Shown: one piece after another, positions 15,388 to 60,646 of the stretch | How positions within the stretch are numbered: the stretch's first letter is position 1 | How the letters are laid out: each line of letters starts with the position of its first letter | IMG/VR virus record: IMGVR_UViG_3300031369_000001 | Location: 1 to 64,000 of that record | Source of the DNA: a virus | Length of the DNA stretch: 64,000 nt | Direction: 5' to 3' (one strand) | The notes under the pieces: generated by a model | The model's database searches: none | Seen by the model: the letters and a program-made list of their open reading frames with translations, nothing else | Told to the model about the DNA's origin: nothing | Program-made: the position numbers and the translations under genes

Positions 15388-15451
15388 CCCTCGACTTCTA
15401 CTTCGCTCGTCCCCCTCAAGGCGGGTGTTGAAAGGCAGAAAGGAAAGTAAT

Positions 15452-15688: not shown

Positions 15689-15737
15689 TTTTGACTTTGT
15701 CAAGTGATTGTTGAGGATGAAAAGAAAGGATTTGAAT

Positions 15738-36059: not shown

Positions 36060-37334
36060 ATGGAAAAGGCAGTTTGGTCAAATGCGCATATGAATGATTT
36101 GCCGGATAGTGCGTTTCTTTATATTGAATCAGGTGGAAAGAAAGATGAAAGTGGTAAAACGGTACCTCGTTCATTGCGTCATTTTCCTTATAGAGGAATG
36201 GATGGTAAAATTGATTTAGCACATGTAAGGAATGCAATTGCCCGCATTCCTCAATCTAAGTGTGGTTTATCGGAACAACAAAAAGTAGCCTTACAGAATA
36301 GGGCTCGTAAATTATTGGAAGGAAAAAAAGAAATGGAAAAAGCAATGTTTCATATTAATTTGCAAAAAGCTGGTCAAGTTTATTATGGGCCTAAAGGCGG
36401 AAAGTATCGAGATCCACAACATAAAATACCTTGGAGCGATAAAGAATTAAAGTATGGAATGACTAAAGAAGAAGGACATATTCAATCTAGTGTATACAAG
36501 ATACATAATACTGCTTCAGATACAGAAGCGTTAAAATTATTTAAAGAAATTACTGGTACATACGGAAATGATAAGATTAAAGAGGTTATTGCTAAACAGA
36601 ATATTCCTATAAGTTCTGGACTAAAAGATGCCTTAAATTCTTATCGTGGAAGAAAAGATTTTATTAATACTTTACAAAATCATATTAATTGGGTCAAGAA
36701 GTATGGGGCGAAAAGAGATAAAGAAGAATCTTCAAACGTTCATGGAAAAATACTTAAAAGTTTAAATGAAGAAATTGAAATCTTAGAGACTTTTTTAAAG
36801 TCTACAATTGAAGATAGTTCTTTACCTATTATTGGAAAAGGTAAGGAACAAGGAGATCAAACATTAGATGGTAAAGGGAAATCTTCTGGCACTCCTGGTA
36901 GTGGTAGTACTGCCCCTGATAGAGGGGTGACAAAACCATCTGTAAAAAAGTTATCTGAAGATGATGAAGTAGACGAGAAAAATATGAAAGATCATAAGAA
37001 GCCTATTGAGAACACTGCAAGGAAAAGCCTTAATCTTTCTACTCACGCACATGACTATATGGCTAGAGAGGTAGCGTTACGAAAGGCTCAATTGCTTAAA
37101 GAAGATTTGGTTTATATTGAACCAGATGAACCTATTCAAAAGTCTATTGAAAATAAAATAATGACCTCTGATGAAATGGCTGTTCTTTCTATGCAGGATG
37201 AATCTTTTTATAAAGCGCATTTACTGAATCGGCCTTTGTCTGGTATTTCTTTAAGTACTGTTAGCAAGTGTAGACATTGCAGTAATACTTTTAGTAAAGC
37301 AATAACAGTTTGTCCGAATTGTGGTCGTATGTAA
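36060..37334 (+). CDS. multi-segment putative head protein (DUF6582-like N-domain, GPKGG tag, C-terminal Zn ribbon)
   Basis: DLPDSAF...RHFP....D..HVRNAIAR; about ten K|[SA] sites; YYGPKGGKYRDPQHKIPW; directly upstream of portal. Confidence 0.65.
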   Translation: MEKAVWSNAHMNDLPDSAFLYIESGGKKDESGKTVPRSLRHFPYRGMDGKIDLAHVRNAIARIPQSKCGLSEQQKVALQNRARKLLEGKKEMEKAMFHINLQKAGQVYYGPKGGKYRDPQHKIPWSDKELKYGMTKEEGHIQSSVYKIHNTASDTEALKLFKEITGTYGNDKIKEVIAKQNIPISSGLKDALNSYRGRKDFINTLQNHINWVKKYGAKRDKEESSNVHGKILKSLNEEIEILETFLKSTIEDSSLPIIGKGKEQGDQTLDGKGKSSGTPGSGSTAPDRGVTKPSVKKLSEDDEVDEKNMKDHKKPIENTARKSLNLSTHAHDYMAREVALRKAQLLKEDLVYIEPDEPIQKSIENKIMTSDEMAVLSMQDESFYKAHLLNRPLSGISLSTVSKCRHCSNTFSKAITVCPNCGRM

Positions 37335-37351
37335 TATAAAGGATTTTGATT

Positions 37352-38944
37352 ATGGGCATTATTAGTACTTTTCAAGAAATGATGCCTATTGCTACGGATT
37401 TGATAAAAGCTAAACTTGAGCAGTCACGACAAGCAATCAATGTTCAAGCACAACAATTATCTAATCCAGCGCAAAAGGCAGATAATGATCCTAAGTCTAT
37501 TTTCTTTGATCCTTATTCCGTAGTAGAGCAATTTGGCTATAAGGATCGTCCTTCATCTATTACGTATGCTACTTTGTGGAATATCTTTTGTAAGCTTCCA
37601 ATTGTTCAAGCAATTGTATTTTTAAGAATGAATCAAGTAGCGGCTTTTGCTACTCCTCAACAAGATAAATTTTCATTAGGATTTCGAGTAGTATTAAAGG
37701 ATAAGGATAAGAATACTACTAAGCAAGAACAGAGATTCATTGCACAGATGAATAATGTTTTATTAAATACGGGAGTAACAAATAATTCTAGAGGCAGAGA
37801 CAGCTTTAAAACTTTTTTAAAGAAATTAGTATTTGATACCCTTATATATGACCAAATGTGTTTTGAAATAGTTCCTAATAGAAAAGGTCTCCCCGCCGAA
37901 TGGTATGCTACAGATGCAGCTACCATTAGAATTGCAGATAATGGGAATGTATTTAATGATGAAGACAAAACAAAAGAGATCAGATATGTACAGGTATATG
38001 ATGGGGTAGTGATTAACGAATATACCCAATATGAAATGGTATTTGGTGTAAGACACCCTAATACTAATATCAGGCTTCAAGGATATGGGGTAAGTGAATT
38101 AGAATTATTGGTGTCTACAATTACTTCCTTATTGTATGGCCATCAATACAATCAGAAGTTTTTTACACAAGGTTCTAGTGCCAAAGGTATTTTGAATTTT
38201 AAAGGAACAACTAATGCTAAGCAACTTGCTGAATTCAAAAGGCATTGGTACACTTTACTTTCTTCGGTTAATAACGCATGGAAAACTCCTATAACTAATA
38301 CCGAGGGTATCGAATGGGTTAATATGCAGCAGACACATAGGGATATGGAATTTTCTGCGTGGATGGATTTTCTTATTAAAGAAGCTTCTGCTGTATATGC
38401 AACTGATCCAGCAGAAATTAATTTTAATTACGGTAATACTGGTCAATCGAGAGCTTTAGTTGAAAGTTCTTCTGCTGAAAAAATTATAGAAAGTAAAGAG
38501 CGCGGACTACGTCCCTTATTAAATGACGTAGGGGAATTAATTGCCATTCATATAGTGGAACCTATTAACCCTGATTTTACTTTTGAGTTTATGGGGCTTG
38601 ATGCAGAAACAAAAGATAGTGTTGCTAAAAGAAATCAACAAAGAGTTCAAACCTATATTACGGTAAATGAATTAAGGGCTGAAGAAGATAGACCTCCATT
38701 GCCAGATGAACAAGGGGATATTATACTGAATCAGGTTTACATTCAGAACAAACAGCAAACACAAGCAATGCAGCAACAAGAAGAAGGTGATCAAAACGAA
38801 AACGGAATGACACAAGATGAAGAAGGTGATGATGGAAAACAAGATATAAGATCTTTATTATCTAAATATTCTGAGGATGATTTAGTTGATCAAAATGAAG
38901 ATGATGAAGTAAAGAAAAGTTTAGTATTGGATGTAGTTTTATAA
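37352..38944 (+). CDS. portal protein
   Basis: D...YDQ..FE.V, D..TI, GYG.SELE, N..FF.QG...GIL, DMEF..W, DP.EI.F, SK..GL.PLL, T.NE.R, GDII motifs as in SPO1/Twort-like portals. Confidence 0.9.
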   Translation: MGIISTFQEMMPIATDLIKAKLEQSRQAINVQAQQLSNPAQKADNDPKSIFFDPYSVVEQFGYKDRPSSITYATLWNIFCKLPIVQAIVFLRMNQVAAFATPQQDKFSLGFRVVLKDKDKNTTKQEQRFIAQMNNVLLNTGVTNNSRGRDSFKTFLKKLVFDTLIYDQMCFEIVPNRKGLPAEWYATDAATIRIADNGNVFNDEDKTKEIRYVQVYDGVVINEYTQYEMVFGVRHPNTNIRLQGYGVSELELLVSTITSLLYGHQYNQKFFTQGSSAKGILNFKGTTNAKQLAEFKRHWYTLLSSVNNAWKTPITNTEGIEWVNMQQTHRDMEFSAWMDFLIKEASAVYATDPAEINFNYGNTGQSRALVESSSAEKIIESKERGLRPLLNDVGELIAIHIVEPINPDFTFEFMGLDAETKDSVAKRNQQRVQTYITVNELRAEEDRPPLPDEQGDIILNQVYIQNKQQTQAMQQQEEGDQNENGMTQDEEGDDGKQDIRSLLSKYSEDDLVDQNEDDEVKKSLVLDVVL

Positions 38945-40202: not shown

Positions 40203-43200
40203 ATGCACATACAAATAGAAGCAAAGAAGGAAGAACTTTTTTCCAAAAGAGTTTCTTTAGTAAAGTCTATCGCTGATTGCATTGGAGAAGTAGATTCTGA
40301 TTTAAAAAATCGTTTAATAAAAGCGATAGACAATAAAGACAAATTGTTTACTGATCCAGTTTTACTAGAAGTATTGAAGCAATGGGAAATAGGTTATAAA
40401 GACCAAACCAATGCGATGCTTGTTGATATAAGTAAAGTATTGGATAAGGGAAAATTAAATAAGAGTCTTAGTTCTGATCCTTCTTGGATTGGTGTTGATT
40501 TAGATAGGACGTTAGCTGAATATCATGAATATAAAGGCCCTGCTTCTATCGGTAAGCCAATTCCTAGAATGGTTGATAGGGTTAAGGAATGGATTGCTAA
40601 TAATAAAAATGTAAAAATTATGACCGCTAGGGCAAATCCAAATTCTAGCGATTTTAGAGCATCTATTACTGCTATAAAGAAATGGTGCAAAAAATATATT
40701 GGAGAAGAATTACCGGTAGTATACGAAAAAGATCTGCATATGGTTGAACTTTGGGATGACCGAGCTATTCAGATTAAACCTAATACGGGTATTAGGGCAG
40801 ATGGATTAAATAAAAGTGAAGATGAAGGTATTTCATATTTTCATTACGATATAGATACAGATTCCTATATTGAAGACTATAATGAATATTTAAATAAAGC
40901 ACAAAAAGGTCCATTCATTGGTCCACGTGGAGGTAAATGGGCTGATCCAGAACACACCATACCTTGGAAAGAAGAAGTACACAGCTACTCAGAAACTAAA
41001 GACCGATATAGTGATGAAGAAGCTGAACAAATTTTAGATAGAATAGGCGAGGCTTTATATAGTCATCAAGCAATTAATCCTCGTGAAAAAGATGATACTG
41101 GATTTAGTTATGTGGATATGGACAGATGGAGATCTGTAACTGGTGTAAATGCAAAGAGACAATTACTTCAAAAATATAAACGCCAAATAGTCGGTGCTTA
41201 TAGTATTGAAGAATATCATAAATTAGGATTAGCAGATGTAAGAGAAGGTAAGGGATATAAAGCGAACATTAAACCTTATTATAATAAAACTTGGGGAAGC
41301 CTCACCCTTCCGGTAGATGGAAGGGTTGATAGAGATACCTTTAATAAATTTAGAGAGATTAATAGAAAACATAATGTGTGGTTTAGTAATGGCGATAACT
41401 TTATTAAAGAACAATATTTAGATGATTTTGATTTTGAATCTTATAAGAAGGATATGGGGGAAATAGGCATAAAAGTTCACCCAATTAAGGGGGAACGAAA
41501 ACAAAATGTATCTGAAAAAGACGAAAAGGATCTTACTGTAGATGAAGCTTTGCAAAGCATTAAAAATAGAAGGATTAAGGATGCAATTGTTCTTAAGAAA
41601 ATAGGTAAAGATAAATTTGCTTTTTGGTCTACCTATTCTCCAGAATTTAATGATTTGTTTTCTAATAAAACTGGTGGATTGTCCGGTATTTTTTACGCAA
41701 ATAAAGATAATAATTGGGCTAGAGAAACGCATGAATTGAATCTAGTAGAAGAAGCTTTACAACAGATAAAGAAGCAATTGCCTAATTATAAGTTGTATAT
41801 AGATGAAGAAGGTTTGAAAGAAGCACAAAATGAAAAAGCGAGATATCAAGCTGAATTACAAAAGCCAATTCCTGAAGTACAGAAATTATTAGATAGTAAA
41901 TATTCATTATTTCCTTATCAAAATGAAGCAGTGCATTTTTTAGATAAAACAAATGGAAATGCCTTAATTGGGGATTCCATGGGACTTGGAAAAACGCTTG
42001 AAACTTTGGCTTGGTTGGCTAAAGGAAATAAGAAAACAATTTTAGTTGTTCCGAAAGTAGTAAGGCGTACTTGGTTACAAGAAGCAGATAAGTTTTTTCC
42101 AGGGCAGTTTAAAGGAACTGAATTAGTGTCTTCTGATATAAGAAATAATAGAGTTCCAAATTTTAAAGATAAGAACCTTGTAACTGTTAATTATGAATCT
42201 TTAGATAAGTTTTATCCTTATTTAAAGGATGCTGGTTTTGATACAGTAGTAGTTGATGAATCACATAGGATGAAGAATCCTAAAGCTAAACAGACAAAAG
42301 CGATTCAAAAGGTATCGGCATTAGTAAATCATCATATTTTATTGTCTGGAACAGCGGTTAAAAATAAAAAAGAAGAGTTGTTTACCCAGTTAGAAGTTGT
42401 TGCGCCAGGTAAATTTACATCTAAAAATCAAATAAAATTTGCTACTATTGGCGGACTTTGGCGCGATATGAAGGATTTCTATATTGCGAGGAGTAAGGAA
42501 GAAGTTCTAAAAGATTTACCTGAAAAAGTCACTTCTATTATTCAACAAGACATACCTAATTTACCTGATTATGGTGCAAATAAAGATATTGGGGATATTG
42601 CTAAAATTAAAGCTTCTGTAGCAATTGGAAAAGTTCCTGCTACTATTGATTTGGCTAAAGAGATACTAGGTTCTTCTGATTCAAAGATAATTGTGTTTAC
42701 TGATTCAGTTGAGGCAGCTAAAAAGATTCATGAAGAATTAGGTGATATTTCTTTATTGCACCATGGGCAAATGAGCGATGATAAAAGGGAAGCGGTAAAG
42801 GAAGAATTTCAAAAAACAGATGGTAATGGTGATTTCATTTCTCCTAAACGGGTATTCGTAACTACTCGTCAGTCAATGGCTGTAGGAGCTACTTTAACCG
42901 CTGCTGATAAAGTCATTTTTAATGACTTACCTTGGACTGCTGCTGATTTACGACAAGCAGAGGATAGAGCACATAGAATTGGGCAAAAGAACAACGTAAA
43001 TGTTTATTGGGTCACTGCTTCGAATAATTTATTTGATTCTTCAGTTACGGAGATAATTAAAAGGAAATATGAATTATCTAAAAAAGTAAATCAGGGAAAG
43101 AAGCTGACGCAAGAAGAAATTGCATGGATGAATAAGCCGTTAACGGTTAGTGATATATTGAATAAAATACATGGAGGTAAAACGCCTATAGAAGAAGAAA

Positions 43201-45011
43201 AACAATTGCTGATTAAAGAAAATAAACCTGAAGTTCCTGTTATTCCGATAGAAGTACCTAAACAAGAAGAAGAGCAGAAGCCTAAATTTATTATGCAAGA
43301 ACCTGTAAAAGTTAAAGAATCTAAAGATATAATAGATATAAAAAAAGATATTAAAGAAACACAAAATAAGATTGATAAATTAAGAGATAGACAATTAAAA
43401 GATTGGCAATCTGGATCTATAACTCGTAAAAGGACAACTACATATAATGCTGAAATAAGTCGACATAATGATAGGATACAAGAATTAAAAAAGCTTTTAA
43501 ACAAATATGAAGAAAATATTAGTGTAATACAAGAAAAAGAACCTGTAAAAGTTGAAACACAAGAACCTGTTAAAAAGAAACGTGGAAGGCCTCTTGGTTC
43601 TAAAAACATTAAAAGAGTTGCTATTCCTCCAATGGTTATCCAAGAACCTGAAAAAAAGAAAAGAGGGAGACCTCCTGGTTCTAAAAACAAAATGACTCGA
43701 GTTGCTATTAAAGAAGTAACACCTCCTACATTTAAACGAGAAGCTATAAAAGAGGAACCTGTTAAACAAGGTAGGGGAAGGCCACCAAAGCCACAAAGTG
43801 TAAAAGAAGCGGAATCTAGTTTAGCTTACGTTTCTGCTAAGAATATAAAACTTAAAAAAGTTGCTTCTGATGACGTTCACGATGTCTATCAAACTAATTT
43901 TTCTATAGACGTAGATGACGCCAAAATAGCTATGAATAATTTACGTGAGCAAGGTATCAATGCAACGGTGCTAGAAGGAGATCCAGGAATAGTTAAAATA
44001 AGAAAAGGTTTTATAATTAGTGAATCTGATTTATATAAAGCCTTATTCATAGGACCTAAAGGTGGTAAATGGGCAAATGCTGAACATACCATACCTTATC
44101 AAGAAGATATAGTTCGAAAACCTGTTAAGCGAGAACCACCTGGTTCACAGTTAGCAATTGACGTACAAAATAAATTAAAAGAATTGAAAGTAGACAAATT
44201 ACCTCAATCTACTATTCCAATTTCAGACATTAGAATTGATTTAACAGGTAATGTTGATACAAAAGCAATCATTACTTGGAAAGATACTAAAGGAAAAGTC
44301 CAAAGTGGTTATACTCCAAAATTCCATGAAATAAATGCTAAGGAAAAATGGGATAGAATTAATAAATTTAGAAGTAAGAAAAAAGAAATTGTAAATACAT
44401 TAAATGAAAAATTGATTAAGGGGAAACCCGGTAGTATTGACCACCAAGGTTATACTATATTAGCCATTATTGCAGAAACAGGATTACGTCCAGGTAGTAC
44501 TGAAAGTGTTAGAAAGCATGGTCATTACGGTATAAGTACTTTAAAAAAGGATCACATTGCTTTAAATAATAAAATGGCTGTTTTAAATTTTATTGGCAAA
44601 GAAGGAAAGAAGAATGTTACAGTGATTCAAAATCCTGTTACGTTAAAAGCTTTAGAGTATTACGTAAGCAATGCTACCGAAAATGGTAGTATATTTAATT
44701 CCAATGCTTTGGATACTGGTAAAACCATACTTCCTAAAGGAATGAAGGTGAAAGACCTTAGAACAATTAAGGCCACCGAATCAGCGGAAAGATTATTAAA
44801 AGAAGTTGACACTCCTCCTCCATTAACCGGAGATAGTAAAAAGGATAAACGATTATTAGCAAAGGCATTGTTGGAAACAAGTAAAAAAGTGGCTACAATA
44901 TTGAATAATACTCCTAGTATTGCAAAGGCTAGTTATATCCATCCAATGGTATTTGAACAATGGGCAAAAAGTGTAGGAGCATCTGAAAAACTTTGGAAAG
45001 AGGTAGGTTAA
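40203..45011 (+). CDS. polyvalent protein: HAD phosphatase + SNF2/SWI2 ATPase + 3 AT-hooks + type IB topoisomerase
   Basis: HAD WIGVDLDRTL...TAR...K...WDDRA. SNF2 LFPYQ, MGLGKT, DESH, LSGT, G.TLT.A, QAEDRAHRIGQ. AT-hooks RGRP x3. TopIB GLRPG, YG..TL, F.GK.G, KDLRT, NTP..A..SYIHP. Confidence 0.9.
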   Translation: MHIQIEAKKEELFSKRVSLVKSIADCIGEVDSDLKNRLIKAIDNKDKLFTDPVLLEVLKQWEIGYKDQTNAMLVDISKVLDKGKLNKSLSSDPSWIGVDLDRTLAEYHEYKGPASIGKPIPRMVDRVKEWIANNKNVKIMTARANPNSSDFRASITAIKKWCKKYIGEELPVVYEKDLHMVELWDDRAIQIKPNTGIRADGLNKSEDEGISYFHYDIDTDSYIEDYNEYLNKAQKGPFIGPRGGKWADPEHTIPWKEEVHSYSETKDRYSDEEAEQILDRIGEALYSHQAINPREKDDTGFSYVDMDRWRSVTGVNAKRQLLQKYKRQIVGAYSIEEYHKLGLADVREGKGYKANIKPYYNKTWGSLTLPVDGRVDRDTFNKFREINRKHNVWFSNGDNFIKEQYLDDFDFESYKKDMGEIGIKVHPIKGERKQNVSEKDEKDLTVDEALQSIKNRRIKDAIVLKKIGKDKFAFWSTYSPEFNDLFSNKTGGLSGIFYANKDNNWARETHELNLVEEALQQIKKQLPNYKLYIDEEGLKEAQNEKARYQAELQKPIPEVQKLLDSKYSLFPYQNEAVHFLDKTNGNALIGDSMGLGKTLETLAWLAKGNKKTILVVPKVVRRTWLQEADKFFPGQFKGTELVSSDIRNNRVPNFKDKNLVTVNYESLDKFYPYLKDAGFDTVVVDESHRMKNPKAKQTKAIQKVSALVNHHILLSGTAVKNKKEELFTQLEVVAPGKFTSKNQIKFATIGGLWRDMKDFYIARSKEEVLKDLPEKVTSIIQQDIPNLPDYGANKDIGDIAKIKASVAIGKVPATIDLAKEILGSSDSKIIVFTDSVEAAKKIHEELGDISLLHHGQMSDDKREAVKEEFQKTDGNGDFISPKRVFVTTRQSMAVGATLTAADKVIFNDLPWTAADLRQAEDRAHRIGQKNNVNVYWVTASNNLFDSSVTEIIKRKYELSKKVNQGKKLTQEEIAWMNKPLTVSDILNKIHGGKTPIEEEKQLLIKENKPEVPVIPIEVPKQEEEQKPKFIMQEPVKVKESKDIIDIKKDIKETQNKIDKLRDRQLKDWQSGSITRKRTTTYNAEISRHNDRIQELKKLLNKYEENISVIQEKEPVKVETQEPVKKKRGRPLGSKNIKRVAIPPMVIQEPEKKKRGRPPGSKNKMTRVAIKEVTPPTFKREAIKEEPVKQGRGRPPKPQSVKEAESSLAYVSAKNIKLKKVASDDVHDVYQTNFSIDVDDAKIAMNNLREQGINATVLEGDPGIVKIRKGFIISESDLYKALFIGPKGGKWANAEHTIPYQEDIVRKPVKREPPGSQLAIDVQNKLKELKVDKLPQSTIPISDIRIDLTGNVDTKAIITWKDTKGKVQSGYTPKFHEINAKEKWDRINKFRSKKKEIVNTLNEKLIKGKPGSIDHQGYTILAIIAETGLRPGSTESVRKHGHYGISTLKKDHIALNNKMAVLNFIGKEGKKNVTVIQNPVTLKALEYYVSNATENGSIFNSNALDTGKTILPKGMKVKDLRTIKATESAERLLKEVDTPPPLTGDSKKDKRLLAKALLETSKKVATILNNTPSIAKASYIHPMVFEQWAKSVGASEKLWKEVG
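40914..40979 (+). repeat. tag repeat A, copy 1 (FIGPRGGKWADPEHTIPWKEEV)
   Basis: 63/66 identical to 49529-49594. Confidence 0.95.
44032..44104 (+). repeat. tag repeat B, copy 1 (YKALFIGPKGGKWANAEHTIPYQ)
   Basis: 73/73 identical to 48465-48537. Confidence 0.95.
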
Positions 45012-45592: not shown

Positions 45593-46582
45593 ATGCGTGA
45601 AAAAGTATTGTGTATTTATCATAATGCGGATTTAGATGGCATTTGTTCAGCAGCTATAGTTTACGATTATTTTAATTGCCAGGGTGATGTTATCGATGGA
45701 AATGTTATTCTATATGGAATGAATTACGGAGATGATTTTCCTTGGTCATTTATAGACAAAGATGAAATGACTGAAGAAGATAAAGAAGATTGTGTTCCTT
45801 ATGACAAGGTAGTAATGGTTGATTTTTCTTTATCTAAAGAAGATATGAAAAGATTAAATAATTTAGTTGATTTAATTTGGATAGATCATCATGTGAGTGT
45901 AATTGCCGACAACAAAGATATTCAAGGTGTGCGCGATATAAATTACGCTGCATGTGAATTAACCTATATGTATTTTCATACAGGAATTACTTATATTGAT
46001 GGAGTACTTGCTTTACCATTAGATGGGGATATGCCAAAAGCTGTTAGATTATTAGGACGTTATGATGTATGGGATCATAGTGATAAAGAAGTAGTACCTT
46101 TTCAATATGGAATGAAATTATACGATATAGGGCCTTGTAATTCTGAATGGAAGGATTTGTTAGATAATTCAGTGATTTCTGATAGTATAATTAAACAAGT
46201 AATTCATAATGGTGAAATAATTGAAAAATACCAAAGTAATTTGAACTATAAATATGTAAATGCATATGGCTTTGTTGCTGTTTTAGAATTTGAAGATGAA
46301 TTGTATAATGTACTGTGTGTAAATAAAGGTTTTAGTAATTCATCTATTGTTAAGGATAGTGCATTATATAACAAATCTATTATTGATTTAATAATGGTTT
46401 TTGTAAGGCATGAGGAGTCTTACAAAGTTTCTTTATATACCGAAAAAGAAATAGATGTATCACAGATAGCAAAAGCTTTTGGGGGTGGAGGACATAAAAA
46501 GGCTGCTGGGTTTATTTGTAGTGGCTTAGAATTTGAAGATTTTAATGGAAATTTGATTATTGACATAGATCCCAATGAATAG
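45593..46582 (+). CDS. DHH/DHHA1-family phosphoesterase (NrnB-like)
   Basis: YHNADLDG..SA, VDFS, IDHH, YD.W, GGGGHKKAAGF. Confidence 0.9.
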   Translation: MREKVLCIYHNADLDGICSAAIVYDYFNCQGDVIDGNVILYGMNYGDDFPWSFIDKDEMTEEDKEDCVPYDKVVMVDFSLSKEDMKRLNNLVDLIWIDHHVSVIADNKDIQGVRDINYAACELTYMYFHTGITYIDGVLALPLDGDMPKAVRLLGRYDVWDHSDKEVVPFQYGMKLYDIGPCNSEWKDLLDNSVISDSIIKQVIHNGEIIEKYQSNLNYKYVNAYGFVAVLEFEDELYNVLCVNKGFSNSSIVKDSALYNKSIIDLIMVFVRHEESYKVSLYTEKEIDVSQIAKAFGGGGHKKAAGFICSGLEFEDFNGNLIIDIDPNE

Positions 46583-47132
46583 AATTCCTATACAGCGATG
46601 GACTGAATTACGAATGCAATATGCATTAACTAGGAAAAATAATCTTTTTGACTTTGGAAGATATGCAGTTGTTCCGAATATTGGTTGGGGGTTAGGACTT
46701 AATCACGAACCTGATTTATTGTGTTTATCTAAAACTGGGATATTTCATGAAGTAGAGATTAAAGTAACTATGGCTGATTTGAAAACAGATAAAGATAAGT
46801 GGCATAATCATTATTCTAGATTTGTTAAACACCTATGGTTTGCTATTCCAGACATTTTATCTATAGATAAGGTTTTAAGCGAAATTCCTGATTATGCTGG
46901 ATTAGTTCAAGTGAGTACTTATTACAATGAATATCCATATAATCAAAAATATTCAAGACAAAAGTATTTAACTCATATAATTAGAAAACCTAGACCAAAA
47001 TTACGAAAAGGGTTGTTTACCGACCCTAAACAAGACACTATTATAAAATTTTTAAGGATTGGAGTTTTGCGAATGTGGACAGATACCTATAGGTTTAAAC
47101 ATTTTGACCGACAAGTAATATTAAAGGGGTGA
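46575..47132 (+). CDS. MmcB-like PD-(D/E)XK nuclease-family protein
   Basis: EPDLL....G...EVEIK....DL..D..K...WFA.P......IP..AGL. Confidence 0.7.
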   Translation: MNRIPIQRWTELRMQYALTRKNNLFDFGRYAVVPNIGWGLGLNHEPDLLCLSKTGIFHEVEIKVTMADLKTDKDKWHNHYSRFVKHLWFAIPDILSIDKVLSEIPDYAGLVQVSTYYNEYPYNQKYSRQKYLTHIIRKPRPKLRKGLFTDPKQDTIIKFLRIGVLRMWTDTYRFKHFDRQVILKG

Positions 47133-50100
47133 TTATTATGCCGTTAACTCCTGATCAAATATTAGAAATCCAAGATATAATTGAATTACATCATAATGCA
47201 TTTATAGCTAATACAATTGGTCATGATGCGTTACCTGATGAAGTAATTGATGAATTACGAGATAAAGGATTATTGAATAAAGAATCTAAAGACCTTATTA
47301 AGAAGATATATGAATACGGTCAAGTGCTTGGTAAATTGAATAGTCCCCAAGCTTCACAGATGTCCTATAATAGATTTGAAGATTATATTCAAAAAAATCC
47401 ACAACCGTTAACGCAAATGCAACAACGAGCTGTTCGTATGGCCCAAGTGAATGCCGGTCAGTATTGTATGGGATTAGGAAATATAATTGAAAAAGATACG
47501 GGAAGAACTTTAATAGAAGCAGATCAAAGATTTAGAATTGCATATGAGGATAAAATAAAAAATCTTACTGCTTTAAATGCTGCAAGAAGAGAGAGTATTG
47601 AAAAGCTTAGAAGTGATTTAGGTTGGTCTACAGGGGATTGGGCTAGGGATATGAAACGAATTGCTGTAACTGAAATAATGTATTCAACGCAGCAAGGACA
47701 AGCGGATTACCTTAGAAAGAAATATGGAGAAGATGTTTTTGTTGCACGTATTCCTAATCCAGGGGCGTGTAAGCATTGTATTCGTTTACATATTGGTCCA
47801 GATGGGCAGCCTAGAATATTTAAATTATCTACTTTAGAGGAACATGGTAGTAACGTAGGACGAAAACAAAATGATTGGCAAGCTGTAGTTGGCCCAGTTC
47901 ATCCTAATTGTGTATGCAACATGATTAGTGTTCCAAAGGGATGGGGATTCAATGAAGAAGGAGACTTGCTTCCAGGAGGTAAGTTAGGGGAAATATATTA
48001 TGAACCAGAAGAATTAGAAAGGGCTTTAATTGAAGAAAATCTTTTTTATAAATCTTTAAAGGCTAAGGTTAATATAGTTTTCCAAGGAATTCCTATTGTT
48101 ATTGAAACTCCAAAAGGAGATAAGCGAAAATGGATTAATGGAGATGGTTCGATAGGGGAAACCATTATGCAGGAAGCTTCTTATGGATTCGTAAAAAATA
48201 CTACTTCTATGGATGAAGAAGAATTAGATGTATTCGTTGGACCATTTAAAGATTCACCTGTAGTTTATATAATTGATCAAAAGAATCCGGATAATGAACT
48301 ATATGATGAACAGAAATGTATGCTTGGTTTTCGAAATGAAGAACATGCATTAAATGTATATAGAATGAATTACGATAATCCAGATAAATTTATTTATGAC
48401 TGTAGTTCGATGGATATAGAAGCCTTTAAGAGATGGTGTGGGATAGGTATTATTCGAGAAGAAATATATAAAGCCTTATTCATAGGACCTAAAGGTGGTA
48501 AATGGGCAAATGCTGAACATACCATACCTTATCAAGATCCTAGTTTAGCAATGAGAAATAAAGCTAGTAATTTTTATGATGGATTGATTAGTTGGGTAAA
48601 GGATAATAAAGATAATTTACAATTTGATTCAAATGGAAATGTTTATATACAGGCAAATCAATTTACAAATGATAAAAATTTATCGCATTTACATATACTG
48701 ATTACTCCTAAAGGAGTTTTTAGAGGCAATGGTATTGGTAAAACTAGTGATGGGAAAGATGTATTAGTGTTAACTAATTTAAGAAATCCATATGATACTA
48801 CTTATTTAGACACTAGAATAACTAGTAGAGTTATTATACACGAAATATCTCATTATCTTAATGCTGGATACGATAAAGTTCATAATATAGTAACTGAGCA
48901 TGGTAAAGAATATTATAATCAATCTGTCGAATTTGATGCATTTTGGAATGAAGGTGCTGGGGAATTGGAAAGATTTATTCGTAATTTTAAAGACACAAAT
49001 CAACATCATATATTTGAAAGGATAGTAGGAAATTCTCCTGATTTTAAGTACTTTAATAGTAAAGTAAAATCTTTTTGGGATAAAACCTTTTTGAATAGTT
49101 TAACAGAAGCTAATAAGAAAAAATTTGATAAAAGATTATATAGATTATGGGATGATTTAAAAAGCAATATCTATAAATCTAATTACGATTTATCCCCTGG
49201 TCCAGGTTCTGGATTGAATTTCTTTTTAGGTACTAATGTAAATAAACCGAATAGTGGAGGAACTATTCGATATAAAGAAGTATTGGAATTAGGTAAAGAG
49301 GAATTAGAAAAACGTAAAAAGCAAAAAGGTAATAAAGGTATTTACGGGGATATAGAGGATTATCAATTTGGCGAAAACATTATACCGGTTAAAGAATTGA
49401 TAATTCCTGAGACCGTAAAAGAGTCTAAGAAAGAAGCACGGAAGAAAAATAAGGATGTGAATAAATTTGTACTTACTAGAAGATTAAAATGGAAAAAAGG
49501 AAATGTAAATAATTTAAATAAATCATTGTTCATTGGTCCACGTGGAGGTAAATGGGCTGATTCAGAACATACTATACCTTGGAAAGAAGAAGTATCAACA
49601 AATGGTAAATTTGTTGATACTAACGATAGTGCTTTAAGTAACGTATTGGCGGAATTGTTGGGAAAAAATATTCATTTAGAAAAAGTTAGGGAAACAGATA
49701 AAGAGTTGTTTTATAGAGGGGGTAAGGAGTTACTTATTGGTGCTAAGAAGCTAATTAATGCTTTAAAAAATAAAGGATTTAAGGTAGAAATAATTCCGCA
49801 AGGAAAGAACCTTCCTATAGTTGTTTTGAATAAGCCAATAAAAAAAGAACCAATAAAGAAAGAACCAATAAAGAAAGAACCAATAAAGAAAGAACCAATA
49901 AAGAAAGAACCAATAAAGCTATCCAGTGATGAAGTTATAAAACAAGATAAAGTTTTAAAGGATAAAAAGATTTTTAACAAATTAAGTAGTGATTATGTTA
50001 ATAGGATTAATAATATTTACAAAGTATTAAAAGACGATAAAGATTTTAAATACTTTGTAAAATCTATTGGTCATACTAATGTAAAAGATACTATTGAATA

Positions 50101-50683
50101 CTTAATTAATAAATGGAATGAGACAGGAAGTGACCATGATATACATTTAATTATTTTACAAAAAGCTGCGATGGATGAGTTTGGATTGGATAGTGGGACG
50201 ATTAAACATTTTGATAAGAAGTTATTAAATAAGGTACATAAAATACCTAAAACTGTTATGGGGGCAAGAAAATTTATAAGAGCGCAGTATAGTCTTACAC
50301 AAGAATATCTAAAAAAACAGGGGATATCGGAAATTATTCTGTTTAGAGGAATGCAACTTAAAAAGATTAAAAGTGATGGTAGGTCTAAAGAGATTGAAGT
50401 TACTTCCCAACCTCTATCTTCTTGGTCTACTTCTTTTTCAGAGGCTAAAGATTTTTCTGTAAGGGGGGCAGTTGGTAGTTCTTCTTTTTCTAGTGTTTTA
50501 TTGTCTAAAAAAGTTCCTATAGAACAAATATTTTCTATACCAAAGGTTGGTATAGGTGAAAGTGATGAACAAGAATGCGTTTTACTTGGAAATAAGAAAG
50601 ATCCTGAAAAAGTGATTTCTTTAGCTGCTGATTATCATTATATGTATAATATTAATGTAAAACAATTATATGGAGAAAAGTAA
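47129..50683 (+). CDS. MuF (head morphogenesis) polyvalent protein: MuF + InPase-like + zincin + C-terminal ADP-ribosyltransferase
   Basis: MuF RIA.TE, ACKHC, PVHPNCVC. InPase IETPKG..R, YG, D.EELDVFVG, DQ, DEQK..LGF. Zincin HEISH..Y....E..A. ART LFRG, PLSSWSTS..A..F, EQE.V. Confidence 0.85.
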   Translation: MIIMPLTPDQILEIQDIIELHHNAFIANTIGHDALPDEVIDELRDKGLLNKESKDLIKKIYEYGQVLGKLNSPQASQMSYNRFEDYIQKNPQPLTQMQQRAVRMAQVNAGQYCMGLGNIIEKDTGRTLIEADQRFRIAYEDKIKNLTALNAARRESIEKLRSDLGWSTGDWARDMKRIAVTEIMYSTQQGQADYLRKKYGEDVFVARIPNPGACKHCIRLHIGPDGQPRIFKLSTLEEHGSNVGRKQNDWQAVVGPVHPNCVCNMISVPKGWGFNEEGDLLPGGKLGEIYYEPEELERALIEENLFYKSLKAKVNIVFQGIPIVIETPKGDKRKWINGDGSIGETIMQEASYGFVKNTTSMDEEELDVFVGPFKDSPVVYIIDQKNPDNELYDEQKCMLGFRNEEHALNVYRMNYDNPDKFIYDCSSMDIEAFKRWCGIGIIREEIYKALFIGPKGGKWANAEHTIPYQDPSLAMRNKASNFYDGLISWVKDNKDNLQFDSNGNVYIQANQFTNDKNLSHLHILITPKGVFRGNGIGKTSDGKDVLVLTNLRNPYDTTYLDTRITSRVIIHEISHYLNAGYDKVHNIVTEHGKEYYNQSVEFDAFWNEGAGELERFIRNFKDTNQHHIFERIVGNSPDFKYFNSKVKSFWDKTFLNSLTEANKKKFDKRLYRLWDDLKSNIYKSNYDLSPGPGSGLNFFLGTNVNKPNSGGTIRYKEVLELGKEELEKRKKQKGNKGIYGDIEDYQFGENIIPVKELIIPETVKESKKEARKKNKDVNKFVLTRRLKWKKGNVNNLNKSLFIGPRGGKWADSEHTIPWKEEVSTNGKFVDTNDSALSNVLAELLGKNIHLEKVRETDKELFYRGGKELLIGAKKLINALKNKGFKVEIIPQGKNLPIVVLNKPIKKEPIKKEPIKKEPIKKEPIKKEPIKLSSDEVIKQDKVLKDKKIFNKLSSDYVNRINNIYKVLKDDKDFKYFVKSIGHTNVKDTIEYLINKWNETGSDHDIHLIILQKAAMDEFGLDSGTIKHFDKKLLNKVHKIPKTVMGARKFIRAQYSLTQEYLKKQGISEIILFRGMQLKKIKSDGRSKEIEVTSQPLSSWSTSFSEAKDFSVRGAVGSSSFSSVLLSKKVPIEQIFSIPKVGIGESDEQECVLLGNKKDPEKVISLAADYHYMYNINVKQLYGEK
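48465..48537 (+). repeat. tag repeat B, copy 2
   Basis: 73/73 identical to 44032-44104. Confidence 0.95.
49529..49594 (+). repeat. tag repeat A, copy 2
   Basis: 63/66 identical to 40914-40979. Confidence 0.95.
49835..49918 (+). repeat. 15-bp tandem repeat CCAATAAAGAAAGAA x5.6 (PIKKE)
   Basis: Read directly; linker before the ART domain. Confidence 0.95.
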
Positions 50684-50898: not shown

Positions 50899-51085
50899 TT
50901 GTCGTAATCAAATAATCCAAAGAACTGATGATGGATTTAAATTACACGTAAAGGGGAGGATTATTTGGAAAGGAGATATATGTGAATCTAAATGTTATTG
51001 GTGTGGCGAACCCATTAAAGTGGCGTTGCCAGTTGATTTATCCAAAGCTATTAGGGGGAAAGAGCGTTATGTCATTAAGCGCTAA
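50885..51085 (+). CDS. small zinc-ribbon protein with LSKA site
   Basis: CPNC...CYWC; DLSKAI. Confidence 0.6.
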   Translation: MKCPNCRNQIIQRTDDGFKLHVKGRIIWKGDICESKCYWCGEPIKVALPVDLSKAIRGKERYVIKR

Positions 51086-51396
51086 TTGATTAGATATGTA
51101 GCGTCTCCCATCTCATACGTTAAAATGAATTGTAGTACGGCGGCTTCAGTGTTAAATTGATTATATAGTTCTTTAACGCTACTTTGATTGTCAATTTGGC
51201 TTTTAATCTCCATTAAACTATTTTCGTGGTAAAATGAAGAAATGAATGTATGTGGGAGTCTATATCCAATACCTAAGTATAGTGTATGGATACAAAATAG
51301 ATATAGCAAATCTTCATTTGACAGATAGATTCCTTCTTCTAAATCTTTCATGAGTTTTCGTGCTTTTTCGATTGACGATATTTTTTTATTTTTCAT
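51082..51396 (-). CDS. hypothetical protein
   Basis: GGAGG RBS; last gene of minus-strand operon. Confidence 0.6.
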   Translation of the reverse strand: MKNKKISSIEKARKLMKDLEEGIYLSNEDLLYLFCIHTLYLGIGYRLPHTFISSFYHENSLMEIKSQIDNQSSVKELYNQFNTEAAVLQFILTYEMGDATYLIN

Positions 51397-51634
51397 TTTT
51401 GGCCTCCATATTTGTTTTTAGGTTGTTTATATTCCATTGTTGTTCCGTTTCCCTTCTCATTTTATCTATTTCTTCTGAATAGATAACTTTGAAAATTGTT
51501 TCTTTTGATTCATATTCGTTTAGCCCCATACAGGCAGGGCACCGAATTATCCATTTACACGTTAAATCCTTATGGTTCGCCCACAAGTATGAAAATGGAG
51601 GTTTGTTGTGCTTTTTACAGTTATTCAGTTTCAT
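51386..51634 (-). CDS. Lar-like zinc-finger protein
   Basis: CKKH...IRCPAC...QWN. Confidence 0.5.
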   Translation of the reverse strand: MKLNNCKKHNKPPFSYLWANHKDLTCKWIIRCPACMGLNEYESKETIFKVIYSEEIDKMRRETEQQWNINNLKTNMEAKNEK

Positions 51635-51860: not shown

Positions 51861-51863
51861 GAA

Positions 51864-52476: not shown

Positions 52477-52489
52477 GATTGTTTTGTCC

Positions 52490-55420: not shown

Positions 55421-55430
55421 GAGGTTTTTC

Positions 55431-57530: not shown

Positions 57531-58322
57531 ATGCCTCAAGAAATTCCTACAAATGATTTTAGACTTTCTGTAGGAGAAGCTTCTTTTTTTACAAAAGCTT
57601 CAGCTCCCGAAGGACAACAACGTCGAATAGGTGGTGTTGTTTCTACAGAAACTCCGGATAGACAAGAAGAAACTCTTATTCAAAATGGTTTAGATTTTTC
57701 TGAATTTGTAAAATATGGTTGGTTTAATGACAACCATTCTAATCCTAAAGTGAGTCATACCTGTAATTTAGTAGGGTATCCTGAGTTAACTGAACGTTTT
57801 CAAAAAGGTGATAGGTTGCCTGATGGAAAAATTGCAAAAGCAGATTGTCATTGGGCAGAGGGGTATTTGTTAGAAGGTTATTCACCTGCTGATGAATTGT
57901 GGAATCTTGCCTGTGCCTTAAATAAGACCCCCCGTAGATTGGGTTTTTCAGTTGAAGGTAAAATTCAACGAAGAGATCCATTAAATAAGTCTACTGTTAC
58001 AAAGGCAATTGTTAGAGAAGTAGCAATTACAAAAGCCCCTGTTAATACAGATACACAATTAAATATATTAGCAAAGGCTCTTTCTATGGGTACTTCTATT
58101 CCAGGCAATTCTGTCGATGGAGATAAAACCGGGGAAAATGCTGGGCAAGTTCTTGCTCAGGAATCCTTAGAGAAGAAAAAGAAAAAGAATTTAAAAAAAG
58201 GTTTAACGGATAGTCAAGCGTTTGCTTGGTTATCTAATCATTTACCCAATATATCCCCTGAATTAAAAGGGAGAATAATCTCGTTGACTCGGGATTTAAA
58301 ATTGCAAAATAAATTGCATTAA
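57531..58322 (+). CDS. prohead (maturation) protease
   Basis: IGG..ST...D.Q.E....GLD...F...G.FNDNH, LGFSVEG, VAIT..PVN..T; SPO1/Twort-like; two genes before the MCP. Confidence 0.88.
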   Translation: MPQEIPTNDFRLSVGEASFFTKASAPEGQQRRIGGVVSTETPDRQEETLIQNGLDFSEFVKYGWFNDNHSNPKVSHTCNLVGYPELTERFQKGDRLPDGKIAKADCHWAEGYLLEGYSPADELWNLACALNKTPRRLGFSVEGKIQRRDPLNKSTVTKAIVREVAITKAPVNTDTQLNILAKALSMGTSIPGNSVDGDKTGENAGQVLAQESLEKKKKKNLKKGLTDSQAFAWLSNHLPNISPELKGRIISLTRDLKLQNKLH

Positions 58323-58338: not shown

Positions 58339-59157
58339 ATGAAAAGACAGCCAATGCAAAATGATGATGAGATGAAGAACAAGAAAGATCAGATGGATGA
58401 GGATAACGAAGATTCTCAAATGGAAGAAGAAGAAAAGTCTTGCGGTACTAAGAAATCACAAGACCTAACCGAAGATGACCTCAGTAAAGCTGTTGAGGTA
58501 TTAAATGATTATGTCAATACGACTGATCCAAATTCTCGAAAAGAGACTTTATTGAAAAAAGCAATGACTGATGATCTTTCTTCTGAAGAGATGAATGAAC
58601 TATTTAAATCTTTAAGTGGTTCTGAAAATTCAAATACGGAAGAAGTTAATGATTTTTCTGATTCTGTTCTTAATTCATTAGAATCTGATACTATTCAGAA
58701 ATCATTAGATGTTTCTGATTATTTAACAGAATTGCATAGTGGATTAGTTAAATCGCTTAGTACGTTAGAAGGAGAATTAAATAGTAATGCTATGCGTCAG
58801 CATACATTTAATATTACTCTTGCTAAGAGCATGGTTTCTGTTGTTACTGGGTTACAGCGTACAATGAATGTTATTTCTGAATTAAAAAAATCTATGGACA
58901 ATTATAGTGAAGCCCCTATTAGAAAGCCAACATCTGTTCAACCTTTAAACAAAGCTTTTGTTGGACACAATGGGCAAGAAGGGCAGTCTTTAAAGAAATC
59001 TGAAATGATGGGACAATTACTCTATCTTGCAGAGCAAGGAGTTGATAACATTGGGGGAGTTAGTGTAAATCATGCGGTTGCTTTACTGGAAAGTAGCAAT
59101 CAATTACCTAATCAAGTTGTTAGTGCTTTAAAAGCTAGACAAGGAGCTACTGCTTAA
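58339..59157 (+). CDS. scaffold-like head assembly protein
   Basis: Acidic/helical, between protease and MCP, about 12 K|[SA] sites. Confidence 0.7.
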   Translation: MKRQPMQNDDEMKNKKDQMDEDNEDSQMEEEEKSCGTKKSQDLTEDDLSKAVEVLNDYVNTTDPNSRKETLLKKAMTDDLSSEEMNELFKSLSGSENSNTEEVNDFSDSVLNSLESDTIQKSLDVSDYLTELHSGLVKSLSTLEGELNSNAMRQHTFNITLAKSMVSVVTGLQRTMNVISELKKSMDNYSEAPIRKPTSVQPLNKAFVGHNGQEGQSLKKSEMMGQLLYLAEQGVDNIGGVSVNHAVALLESSNQLPNQVVSALKARQGATA

Positions 59158-59215: not shown

Positions 59216-60646
59216 ATGTTAGAGAACATGGTTAGTTTTTCAGATTATGATGGCATCGAGGGATATGGAAGTGTTCAGCAGCAAGAAGTAGTTGACTTGA
59301 ATAAAGCTTTAACTGCTGGACAAGATATAGCGGCGCCTACTGTTGCTGCTGGAGAAGGCTTTCCTTTACGGGTTGAGTCTTTAGAGAATACCTTAAAAAC
59401 GGTTACCTTTACGGCAAAAGAAATTGTTTTTTGGAAAGCTATTCCCAAAATCCCTGCATACAATACGGTGGAAGAGCATAATCAGATTTCGAATTATGGA
59501 TCTAATGAGGATTCTGGATTCATTCCGGAAGGTGCGCTTCCTGAAAGTGATGATTCTACTTATGCGCGAAAGTACGCGGTGGTAAAGTTTTTAGGTACTA
59601 CTCGATCTGTAACTCATGTAATGAGTCTCGTTCGGCCAGCGCATGGTAACGTTATCGCCAATGAAACCGTTAATGGAACATTGCATTTACTTCGTATTTT
59701 GGAAAAAGCTCTTTATTACGCGGATTCTTCTTTATCTGCTGTTCAATTTGATGGCTTTAATAAGCTAATTACGGATAATGCAGATTCTGATCATGTATTA
59801 GATTTAAGAGGAGCGCCTCTTACCGAGGATATTTTATCGGACGCAGTAGCTACTGTTAGAACTTCTTATGGATTTCCTACTCATCTTCATTTAAACCATA
59901 AGACTAAGTCGGAATTAACTAAGACATTTTTCCCCAAAGAGCGACATAATACTTTTACTGATAATAGTGGTATTATTGGTAATAACATTACTGGGTTTAC
60001 TTCTGAATCAGGTATCGTTCAATTTGTAAGTAATACTTTTCTTACTGGTAACACTGCTTCTTATAATTCCGCAGCAATTGGGGACGCAACTAAAATCCCT
60101 GGAACACCTACTATCAGTACTTCATTAGCTGCTTCTGGTACGGCAGCTCCGTTATGGACTGCGGATGATGCTGGGAGCTATTATTGGACTGTCGTTGCGT
60201 GCAATCGTTATGGGAGGTCAGCTCCAGTGGACGCAAATGAGGCCGGAGGTGCTTTTGCCGTTGCCACTACGCAAACAGTTACTTTTGGTGTAACACCGTC
60301 AACTACTGGAGGTGCCGGGGCTACTGAATGGTACGAAATTTATCGTACTAAAAAGGGTGGGGCGGATGGTACGGAGAAATTAATTCAACGTATCGTGAAC
60401 TCTAATACTACAAGTGAACAAACAATTACGGATTTGAATGCAAGTCTCCCGGACACTACCAATGCCTTTTTACTTCAGCAGAATATTGATAGTCTTTCAT
60501 TTAAACAATTAGCTCCGATGGTTAAAATCCCATTAGCGACTATTGCGACAGCCGTTCGTTGGTGTCAGGTTCTTTATGGGGTTCCTGTGCTTTATGCCCC
60601 GAATAAGAATTTCTTATTTAAGAATGTGGGAAAGAATAACTACTAA
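59216..60646 (+). CDS. major capsid protein
   Basis: LNK|ALTAG, LRVESL...L, E......D....R.....KF, FDG..KL, V.DLRG..L, P..K.PLA...YG...L.AP; SPO1/Twort-like pattern. Confidence 0.92.
   Translation: MLENMVSFSDYDGIEGYGSVQQQEVVDLNKALTAGQDIAAPTVAAGEGFPLRVESLENTLKTVTFTAKEIVFWKAIPKIPAYNTVEEHNQISNYGSNEDSGFIPEGALPESDDSTYARKYAVVKFLGTTRSVTHVMSLVRPAHGNVIANETVNGTLHLLRILEKALYYADSSLSAVQFDGFNKLITDNADSDHVLDLRGAPLTEDILSDAVATVRTSYGFPTHLHLNHKTKSELTKTFFPKERHNTFTDNSGIIGNNITGFTSESGIVQFVSNTFLTGNTASYNSAAIGDATKIPGTPTISTSLAASGTAAPLWTADDAGSYYWTVVACNRYGRSAPVDANEAGGAFAVATTQTVTFGVTPSTTGGAGATEWYEIYRTKKGGADGTEKLIQRIVNSNTTSEQTITDLNASLPDTTNAFLLQQNIDSLSFKQLAPMVKIPLATIATAVRWCQVLYGVPVLYAPNKNFLFKNVGKNNY

Follow-up and report, generated by a model that had tools for sequence, protein, structure and literature searches.

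The internal proteins of phage T4, as well as Alt, carry a capsid-targeting sequence that is cut by the gp21 prohead protease. To our knowledge, poxviruses are the only viruses that bring a type IB topoisomerase (TopIB) into the cell. According to PMC12188299, which cites Shaffer & Traktman 1987 and Da Fonseca & Moss 2003, the vaccinia virion contains its TopIB, and the main role of the enzyme lies in early transcription. Among phages, polyvalent proteins have been described (Iyer, Burroughs, Anand, de Souza, Aravind 2017, PMC5512222). Their repertoire includes the Dar proteins of P1, known to be packaged in the head, among them the SNF2 protein DarB, and the InPase domain was defined from phage polyvalent proteins predicted as packaged (PMC5512222). 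The present analysis concerns a single open reading frame (ORF), here called P0001, at 40203-45011 on the plus strand of the IMG/VR record IMGVR_UViG_3300031369_000001; the window, that is, the whole stretch of DNA analysed, covers 64,000 nucleotides (nt) of this record. From the N- to the C-terminus, P0001 encodes a HAD phosphatase core, an SNF2 ATPase, three AT-hooks and a TopIB. With modest confidence, slightly on the favourable side of even, we propose that P0001 is a phage polyvalent cargo polyprotein that would be made with the head proteins, cleaved in the capsid and injected with the DNA.

P0001 is continuous over 1602 amino acids (aa) with zero internal stops. Its ATG follows the stop codon of the preceding ORF at a distance of 1 nt and lacks a Shine-Dalgarno motif of its own. 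The continuous frame and the domain order were kept in eight orthologues from independent metagenome contigs (74-98% identity, 1514-1742 aa), several of these contigs being ~100 kb long. Thus, P0001 is not an assembly chimera. The following features were distinguished within it.

40203..45011, plus strand: whole polyprotein ORF P0001, 1602 aa, from the ORF scan
40203..40463, plus strand: helical leader, aa 1-87, with four [LIVMF]xK[AGS] motifs, the last of which (LNKS, aa 85-88) stands directly before the HAD core
40464..40847, plus strand: capless HAD-type phosphatase core, aa 88-215, assigned from motifs, PHROGs phrog_1238 and phrog_415, and fold
40890..40967, plus strand: cargo tag 1, aa 230-255, L-N-K-A followed by GPFIGPRGGKWADPEHTIPW; putative cut K232/A233
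40968..41885, plus strand: conserved region of unassigned fold, aa 256-561, its later part inside the phrog_62 helicase match
41895..43130, plus strand: SNF2-family ATPase, aa 565-976, from Pfam and motifs I, II, III and VI
43191..43574, plus strand: charged/coiled linker, aa ~997-1124, variable and indel-rich in the orthologue comparison
43575..43607, plus strand: AT-hook 1, KKRGRPLGSKN, with an RGRP core, in a duplicate unit spaced 81 nt from that of hook 2
43656..43688, plus strand: AT-hook 2, KKRGRPPGSKN, with an RGRP core
43770..43799, plus strand: AT-hook 3, GRGRPPKPQS, with an RGRP core
43800..44012, plus strand: small conserved domain, aa 1200-1270, present in all orthologues
44031..44099, plus strand: cargo tag 2, aa 1277-1299, L-Y-K-A followed by LFIGPKGGKWANAEHTIPY; putative cut K1279/A1280
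44139..45008, plus strand: TopIB, aa 1313-1602, with an N-terminal beta domain and a catalytic domain, from Pfam, PDB, fold and residues

For aa 256-561, Pfam (E<=10) and NCBIfam returned no family, and the protein Atlas gave HARP and XPB_DRD as weak leads (scores about 0.8). The small domain at aa 1200-1270 found no match in family searches, the Atlas or Pfam (E<=10).

The ~25-residue tag occurs twice in P0001 and divides it into three modules, and each copy opens with [LIVMF]-x-K-[AGS]. When the genome was scanned in six frames, five copies of the tag were located, all of them in the ORFs 36060-37334, 40203-45011 and 47129-50683. These three ORFs and the head genes are arranged as follows.

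36060..37334, plus strand: ORF upstream of the portal gene, 424 aa, with a diverged tag (nt ~36387), the third-highest motif density and a C-terminal CxxC...CxxC
37346..38944, plus strand: portal protein, 1.3 kb upstream of P0001
47129..50683, plus strand: MuF-like/InPase polyprotein, 1184 aa, 2.1 kb downstream of P0001, with InPase at aa 313-437
57531..58322, plus strand: prohead (head maturation) protease, a head gene
58339..59157, plus strand: scaffold protein, 272 aa, with 9 [LIVMF]xK[AGS] motifs
59216..60646, plus strand: major capsid protein, with D-L-N-K-A at aa 27-31

The short motif that opens the tag was concentrated in the head proteins. Its density over plus-strand ORFs of >=100 aa was 0.56 per 100 aa, and the highest densities in the genome were those of the scaffold (3.3 per 100 aa), the protease (3.0) and the ORF 36060-37334 (2.4). 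For the scaffold and the protease this is a six-fold enrichment. The scaffold density, from 9 sites, was reached in 0/5000 shuffles, and the motif of the capsid protein lies at the N-terminal boundary. The cultured SPO1-like phage SP-10 gave a similar picture, with 3.6 for its scaffold, 3.2 for its protease and a capsid protein that reads ..N-L-N-K-A-L-E-A-G... Judged from these patterns, [LIVMF]-x-K-[AGS] behaves like the site of the head protease, and we infer cleavage at it.

The tag itself was followed beyond this genome. Its core, back-translated into a DNA pattern, was found in 98 stretches of IMG/VR; by our own estimate, which is not a computed figure, chance would give less than one stretch with 21 specified bases. 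At positions left free by the pattern, the 101 non-redundant copies agreed on G at -4 (92/101), [FY] at -2 (100/101), H at +11 (93/101) and W at +15 (96/101), and [LIVMF]-x-K-[AGS] stood just upstream of the tag core in 92/101. A Pfam census of 61 of the 78 tagged ORFs outside the P0001 lineage gave InPase (12), Zeta toxin/AAA_33 (6), RelA_SpoT (3), Topoisom_I (2), ddrB-ParB (2) and SNF2 (1), in addition to GGDEF, DarA_C, PadR and SAM lyase, and TopIB was present in 2/78. By its domain content, this census largely repeats the phage-type repertoire of PMC5512222, and the tag appears to mark polyvalent proteins in general. Its role could be loading, protease recognition or docking, or ejection. 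Within the literature searched, no description of the tag motif strings or of a packaged phage TopIB was found.

The tag is also repeated at the DNA level. The DNA of tag 2 (44032-44104) and that of tag 1 of the next polyprotein gene (48465-48537) share 73 nt at 100% identity, and a second pair, 40881-40979 and 49496-49594, is 82% identical over 99 nt, the pairs standing in swapped order. From sequence, the repeated tag DNA could be a recombination joint that swaps cargo modules, or the trace of gene conversion. Beyond its MuF-like N-terminus and InPase, the polyprotein at 47129-50683 holds two modules of ~350 aa, each behind a tag (nt 48465-48537 and 49496-49594), and neither C-terminal module had a family match. 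A 15-nt tandem repeat at 49828-49917 of the same gene encodes K-E-P-I-K repeats. The ORF 36060-37334 was likewise without a family match; its end is zinc-ribbon-like, and it may be another cargo or a scaffold-like protein.

In SP-10, the portal, protease, scaffold and capsid genes are contiguous, whereas ~18.5 kb intervenes here. This block contains P0001, a DHH phosphoesterase, an MmcB-like nuclease, the MuF-like/InPase polyprotein, minus-strand ORFs, a receiver-domain protein and a sigma factor. The DHH/DHHA1 phosphoesterase and the MmcB-like (PD-(D/E)xK-type) nuclease lie between both polyprotein genes at 45593-47132, and neither is tagged. The interval 55386-56577, immediately before the prohead protease gene, encodes a sigma-70-like factor and a receiver-domain protein whose Response_reg match falls slightly short of the Pfam cut-off. 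A scan for promoters and terminators over 36-52 kb gave fewer promoter-like sites than shuffles did and was uninformative.

The C-terminal module was identified by several comparisons. Pfam Topoisom_I matched aa 1374-1595 with E 8.4e-17 and 61.7 bits over a cut-off of 23.7 (67.8 bits in the genome search). A PDB sequence search returned Deinococcus radiodurans TopIB as the best match (E 3.6e-12), variola TopIB (8.4e-10) and the vaccinia catalytic fragment. Residues R1429, K1466, K1517/R1520 (in K-D-L-R), N1569 and Y1578 align with vaccinia R130, K167, K220/R223, H265 and Y274, and the six catalytic residues are invariant in 39 homologues (28-60% identity); the codon of Tyr1578 is nt 44934-44936. 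In bacterial TopIBs, Asn takes the place of the poxviral His; the residue corresponding to TopIB K220 is usually His in tyrosine recombinases (PMC2666729). An AlphaFold2 model built from the 39-homologue alignment had a mean predicted local distance difference test (pLDDT) value of 95.5. Its top Foldseek match was variola TopIB (E 1.9e-12, template modelling (TM) score 0.69, both domains, ~300 columns), followed by human Top1 and Deinococcus TopIB. Among tyrosine recombinases, XerH matched best, with E 3.3e-4 and TM 0.38, and ranked below every TopIB; no telomere resolvase was among the Foldseek matches. On sequence and model together, the C-terminal domain is a complete TopIB of the poxvirus/bacterial type, for which relaxation activity is predicted.

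These results also bear on an original prediction, made earlier from the sequence of the window alone. It had placed a TopIB catalytic domain with R, K, R, N and a Tyr at 44934 at the C-terminus, and both the residues and the Asn, as in bacterial TopIB (PMC2666729), were confirmed. It had further named modelling as a tyrosine recombinase or telomere resolvase as the outcome that would overturn this assignment; the fold found was that of a TopIB, with an invariant Lys at the vaccinia-220 position. Complete SNF2 motifs, three AT-hooks in a low-complexity linker and the rarity of TopIB in tailed phages, all claimed there as well, held in the comparisons described below.

Relatives of the TopIB were numerous. 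At 50%-identity clustering, 2989 clusters were found at E<=1e-3 and 142 at E<=1e-30, and 86/176 homologues examined were >=800 aa long, with TopIB usually C-terminal. The Pfam lists of TopIB proteins include InPase, ddrB-ParB, ART-PolyVal, Mu F and three portal families, as well as 2H phosphoesterase, NUDIX, NAD-ligase and sigma-70 domains. Distant IMG/VR loci were found with an alignment of 7 TopIB sequences, a single-protein query giving close relatives only. On two unrelated viral contigs of higher GC content, L007 (8348-10855) and L008 (8453-10897), a portal (phrog_113) carries a complete C-terminal TopIB, 814-835 aa in all; this gene has the terminase on one side and a MuF-like 'DNA pilot' gene on the other, and a ParB-methyltransferase gene lies upstream. 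A 1216-aa TopIB protein comes next after the terminase at locus L005, and a 398-aa TopIB adjoins a MuF-like gene at L009. The tag was also seen at the N-terminus of stand-alone TopIBs of 345-410 aa, and sigma-factor, InPase and TopIB modules co-occur in a single polypeptide, P0035.

Two natural variants bear on whether SNF2 and TopIB belong together. P0010 is an orthologue of the neighbouring MuF-InPase protein (64% identity, 446 aa) that continues into a tag and a TopIB, the latter 64% identical to that of P0001. P0059 (743 aa) is 85-88% identical to P0001 and has lost residues ~256-1000 in frame, that is, the unassigned domain and SNF2, and retains HAD, two AT-hooks, the small domain and TopIB. 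Both variants argue against an obligate unit of SNF2 and TopIB, and the AT-hooks are not tied to the ATPase, since they remain in P0059. As read from these sequences, TopIB would be a mobile cargo module. Among 50,697 GenBank phage records of cultured phages, tblastn gave 1 weak TopIB match, which agrees with the expected rarity. This sole match, top1E of Bacteroides phage BS162P1, stands among small hypothetical genes and says nothing on packaging. Jumbo phages with a solo TopIB were noted earlier (PMC7824862).

The SNF2 ATPase was recognised by Pfam SNF2-rel_dom (aa 572-781, E 2.9e-24, 86.1 bits) and Helicase_C (aa 818-927, E 6.5e-14, 52.6 bits), both above their cut-offs, and its motifs are complete: I GLGKT (594), II DESH (685), III SGTA (715) and VI QAEDRAHRIGQ (918). 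The phrog_62 helicase match spans aa 361-1105, and around motif I the region matches the giant DarB-like PHROGs phrog_11801 and phrog_1685. PDB matches of the region were SsoRad54, BRG1, ISWI and Chd1. PADLOC matches to ZorD, DpdE, DrmD and BrxH reflect only the shared SNF2 core and were not taken as placing P0001 in a defence system. As for the AT-hooks, a six-frame reading of the 102,614-bp genome shows RGRP at these three places and at no other. The RGRP cores, flanked by basic residues, are invariant across orthologues, and the linker before them varies by indels of up to ~200 residues. The 13-position Pfam AT_hook model gave the three stretches 14.6 bits, which is below its cut-off of 17.4. 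P0084 and P0141, both distant homologues, likewise have AT-hook-like RGRP motifs flanking their TopIB domain.

For the N-terminal 236 aa, Pfam, NCBIfam and a PDB sequence search gave no match; therefore, the HAD assignment rests on motifs, two PHROGs and fold. Motif I is D99-L-D101-R-T103 (nt 40497-40511). More than 260 database relatives of aa 88-215 were found, mostly proteins of 130-140 aa without a Pfam family, and the signature DxDxT, T, K, DD (residues D, D, T, T, K, D, D) was invariant in 48/48 aligned homologues. The model of the core had a pLDDT of 90.5, and the top-ranked fold matches, including those of Foldseek, were HAD enzymes only. The evidence from motifs and model supports an N-terminal HAD phosphatase. 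Its best structural neighbour was the 3'-phosphatase domain of T4 Pnkp (Z 9.5, root-mean-square deviation 3.0, 104 residues), tied with BT_0820 (Z 8.8), bacterial Pnkp1 (8.7), AphA (8.2) and GmhB (7.7). Of the idea in the original prediction that a HAD phosphatase possibly heals 3'-phosphate ends, the HAD identity is supported. As to the substrate, T4 Pnkp is among the best neighbours only within a tie, and a search of the genome for end-healing partners turned up neither an RNA ligase nor an ATP-dependent DNA ligase nor a 2H phosphoesterase. A nucleic-acid 3'-phosphate is, by this structural likeness, one candidate substrate among several.

The source record is 102,614 bp (102.6 kb) long and is estimated to be 95% complete. 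The capsid protein is ~37% identical to capsid proteins of SPO1-like Bacillus phages. Shine-Dalgarno motifs precede 56/96 ORFs, compared with 17.5% of random 18-mers of the genome, a frequency that fits a Firmicutes-type host. No Rfam family and no tRNA was found in the window. Three further regions of the record were observed. The record start (1-45) consists of a tandem 21-nt unit, TAATAATCAACCTCAATATCC, and the first 100 nt recur elsewhere in the genome. A recombination cluster at 1294-5819 encodes a RecA-like protein (1294-2379), a calcineurin-like phosphoesterase (2845-3816) and an SbcC/Rad50-like ATPase (3813-5819). At 13600-15700, a 2.1-kb island of 51-56% GC lies in a genome of ~31% GC and holds several small plus-strand ORFs (62-199 aa); it had no Pfam, Rfam or tandem-repeat match and looks like a foreign insertion.

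If P0001 is a cargo polyprotein, the following course of events can be proposed. P0001 would be co-assembled into the prohead, and during head maturation the prohead protease would cut at the [LIVMF]-x-K/[AGS] that opens each tag. Three products would result, namely, aa 1-232 with the phosphatase, aa 233-1279 with the SNF2 translocase and its AT-hook tail (the unassigned domain and the small domain included) and aa 1280-1602, the TopIB of ~37 kDa; these would be retained in the capsid and pass into the cell together with the DNA. By analogy with encapsidated vaccinia TopIB, the phage TopIB would serve the AT-rich, end-constrained genome just after injection as an ATP-independent swivel. The torsional stress that it would relieve may arise from early transcription or from translocase action. 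The SNF2 module would track along the DNA, with the hooks on AT-rich minor grooves, and clear bound proteins, while the phosphatase may act on a nucleic-acid 3'-phosphate. Because sigma-factor, InPase and TopIB modules are fused in P0035 and vaccinia provides a precedent, help for early transcription of the phage is suggested.

Several points weigh against this proposal. The block from portal to protease is not one operon, as minus-strand ORFs lie at 51082-52533, and it also has untagged genes (DHH, MmcB-like, sigma factor). The conserved 20 tag residues lie past the presumed cut and would stay on each product. The tblastn search of the 50,697 GenBank phage records gave no cultured relative with this TopIB. 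Finally, that TopIB would act on phage DNA rather than host DNA is argued only by analogy. The original prediction had described an injected kit that remodels or relaxes the incoming genome. Delivery is indirectly supported by the position between portal and protease, by the tag shared with two neighbouring ORFs only and by the portal-TopIB fusions; a single integrated machine is not supported, with tags and protease-type sites separating the modules, and neither is the stripping of H-NS-like silencers that it had named as an example.

The integrated machine is one alternative. P0001 might not be cargo but would work at full length inside the cell in replication, recombination or packaging, with SNF2, a swivel and an end-healing phosphatase in one chain and an incidental position among head genes. 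The fused architecture is kept in nine orthologues, and an AT-hook-anchored translocase would, by inference, create torsion that a linked TopIB could release. However, the tag is found only in three head-block ORFs, the protease-type motifs stand exactly at module borders, and TopIB occurs in only 2/78 tagged ORFs. Since TopIB is fused to portals (L007, L008) and to a MuF-InPase carrier (P0010) elsewhere and a relative (P0059) has the SNF2 part cleanly deleted, a delivery polyprotein is favoured over it. From these sequences, remodeller and swivel probably do not form one integrated machine, and we regard this alternative as unlikely. Rather than a relaxing enzyme, the C-terminal domain could be a telomere resolvase, a site-specific recombinase or a pilot that caps the genome terminus covalently or like a clamp; this reading would draw on the common chemistry and catalytic fold of TopIB and tyrosine recombinases and on the portal fusion, which puts the domain where the first-ejected DNA end sits. 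It is opposed by the top fold matches, all TopIBs (recombinases at E 3e-4 or worse and TM <=0.38, no resolvase), by Lys instead of His at the vaccinia-220 position, a TopIB signature, and by the TopIB-type N-terminal domain, and we give it hardly any credence.

Two further explanations accept packaging and differ in the target. A packaged effector could be directed at the host chromosome, where TopIB would relax or nick the negatively supercoiled nucleoid and SNF2 and the AT-hooks would strip nucleoid proteins, so that host transcription and replication would be shut down in the course of takeover. The packaging evidence is identical to that for the proposed cargo polyprotein, and tagged proteins elsewhere carry host-directed Zeta toxin kinase, RelA/SpoT, GGDEF and ART domains. 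However, a virion would supply only a few molecules against the activity of host gyrase, the union of TopIB with sigma-factor and InPase modules in P0035 better fits aid to phage transcription, and encapsidated vaccinia TopIB serves viral early transcription; we think a host target improbable. The other explanation is a DarB-like anti-restriction role, in which SNF2 would ride the entering DNA and block or displace restriction or DNA-tracking defence enzymes, with TopIB cancelling the supercoils on which these enzymes depend or which they generate. In P1, DarB is an SNF2-type protein that is packaged in the head and gives DNA protection in cis (PMC5512222), the SNF2 region matches the DarB-like PHROGs around motif I, and DarA_C, ddrB-ParB and SAM lyase are present in other tagged proteins. 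Against it, Pfam found no methyltransferase family anywhere in P0001, including the adenine methyltransferase that defines the methylase-helicase dyad of DarB, and a defence target is without direct evidence. Such a role is, in our view, quite unlikely.

The cargo polyprotein may be one case of a broader arrangement. A general capsid cargo system can be imagined, in which a tag with a protease site labels enzymes and sets them apart from one another, and in which SPO1-related phages, like other uncultured ones, would load these enzymes into heads and inject them. TopIB would be one cargo, the counterpart of the encapsidated poxvirus topoisomerase, and identical tag DNA would shuffle modules between carriers; this generalisation is offered tentatively, as a possibility somewhat short of even. 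Should the modules prove to be packaged and injected, TopIB would reach the cell with tailed phages as it does with poxviruses, and the question would arise how injected phage DNA is topologically handled before phage gene expression. The tag with its cleavage motif would provide a sequence rule that predicts the ejected proteins of uncultured phages, otherwise invisible without proteomics, and enzymes for counter-defence and takeover are frequent in the tagged set. TopIB is nearly absent in cultured phages, yet hundreds of clusters are found in metagenomic phage proteins, which enlarges the pool of bacterial-type TopIBs. This phage-cargo pool could be a reservoir related to the sporadic TopIBs of bacteria and giant viruses. 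A caution also follows: the fusion of SNF2, AT-hooks and TopIB may be a shipping arrangement and not a machine like a chromatin remodeller.

Compared with eukaryotic SWI/SNF remodellers (BRG1/SNF2), P0001 has a similar SNF2 core (PDB E ~1e-24) followed by RGRP AT-hooks but differs in having no bromo, HSA or SnAC domains, and the best single SNF2 match was an archaeal enzyme, the Rad54-like protein of Sulfolobus (1z63), not a eukaryotic remodeller. The likeness to polyvalent proteins (PMC5512222) is closer. Several unrelated enzymes, here HAD, SNF2 and TopIB, share one viral polypeptide with SNF2 as a hub, the ORF is associated with portal, MuF and other head genes, its neighbour has InPase and a MuF-like region, and delivery with DNA is predicted. 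Unlike those proteins, P0001 has no adenine methylase or zincin peptidase, and its modules are separated by a tag with a prohead-protease-type site. In the full text of PMC5512222, 'topoisomerase' appears in the reference list only, and HAD phosphatase and AT-hook are absent among its domains. None of TopIB, HAD phosphatase and AT-hooks was found among the domains described for polyvalent proteins, and for the grammar of tag and protease site the literature searched held no description.

The T4 internal proteins and Alt resemble the proposed cargo in being head-loaded enzymes that are trimmed at a short motif common to capsid and scaffold proteins and then injected. In T4, a short leader is removed, whereas in P0001 the conserved 20 residues would stay on the modules, and several modules are made per ORF. 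With poxvirus TopIB (vaccinia/variola; 2h7f, 1a41), the phage module has in common the two-domain fold (TM 0.69), the R-K-K-R-Y set and the small size of ~320 aa; it is ~20% identical, has Asn in place of His265 and is made as the tail of a polyprotein. Bacterial TopIBs (Deinococcus radiodurans 2f4q/3m4a; Pseudomonas aeruginosa, PMC2666729) have the same catalytic residues, with Asn for His, but they are stand-alone chromosomal proteins, whereas the phage-cargo relatives mostly lie inside long multidomain proteins. These phage-cargo relatives (142 clusters, E<=1e-30) form a set of their own that is much closer to the P0001 TopIB than the bacterial enzymes are.

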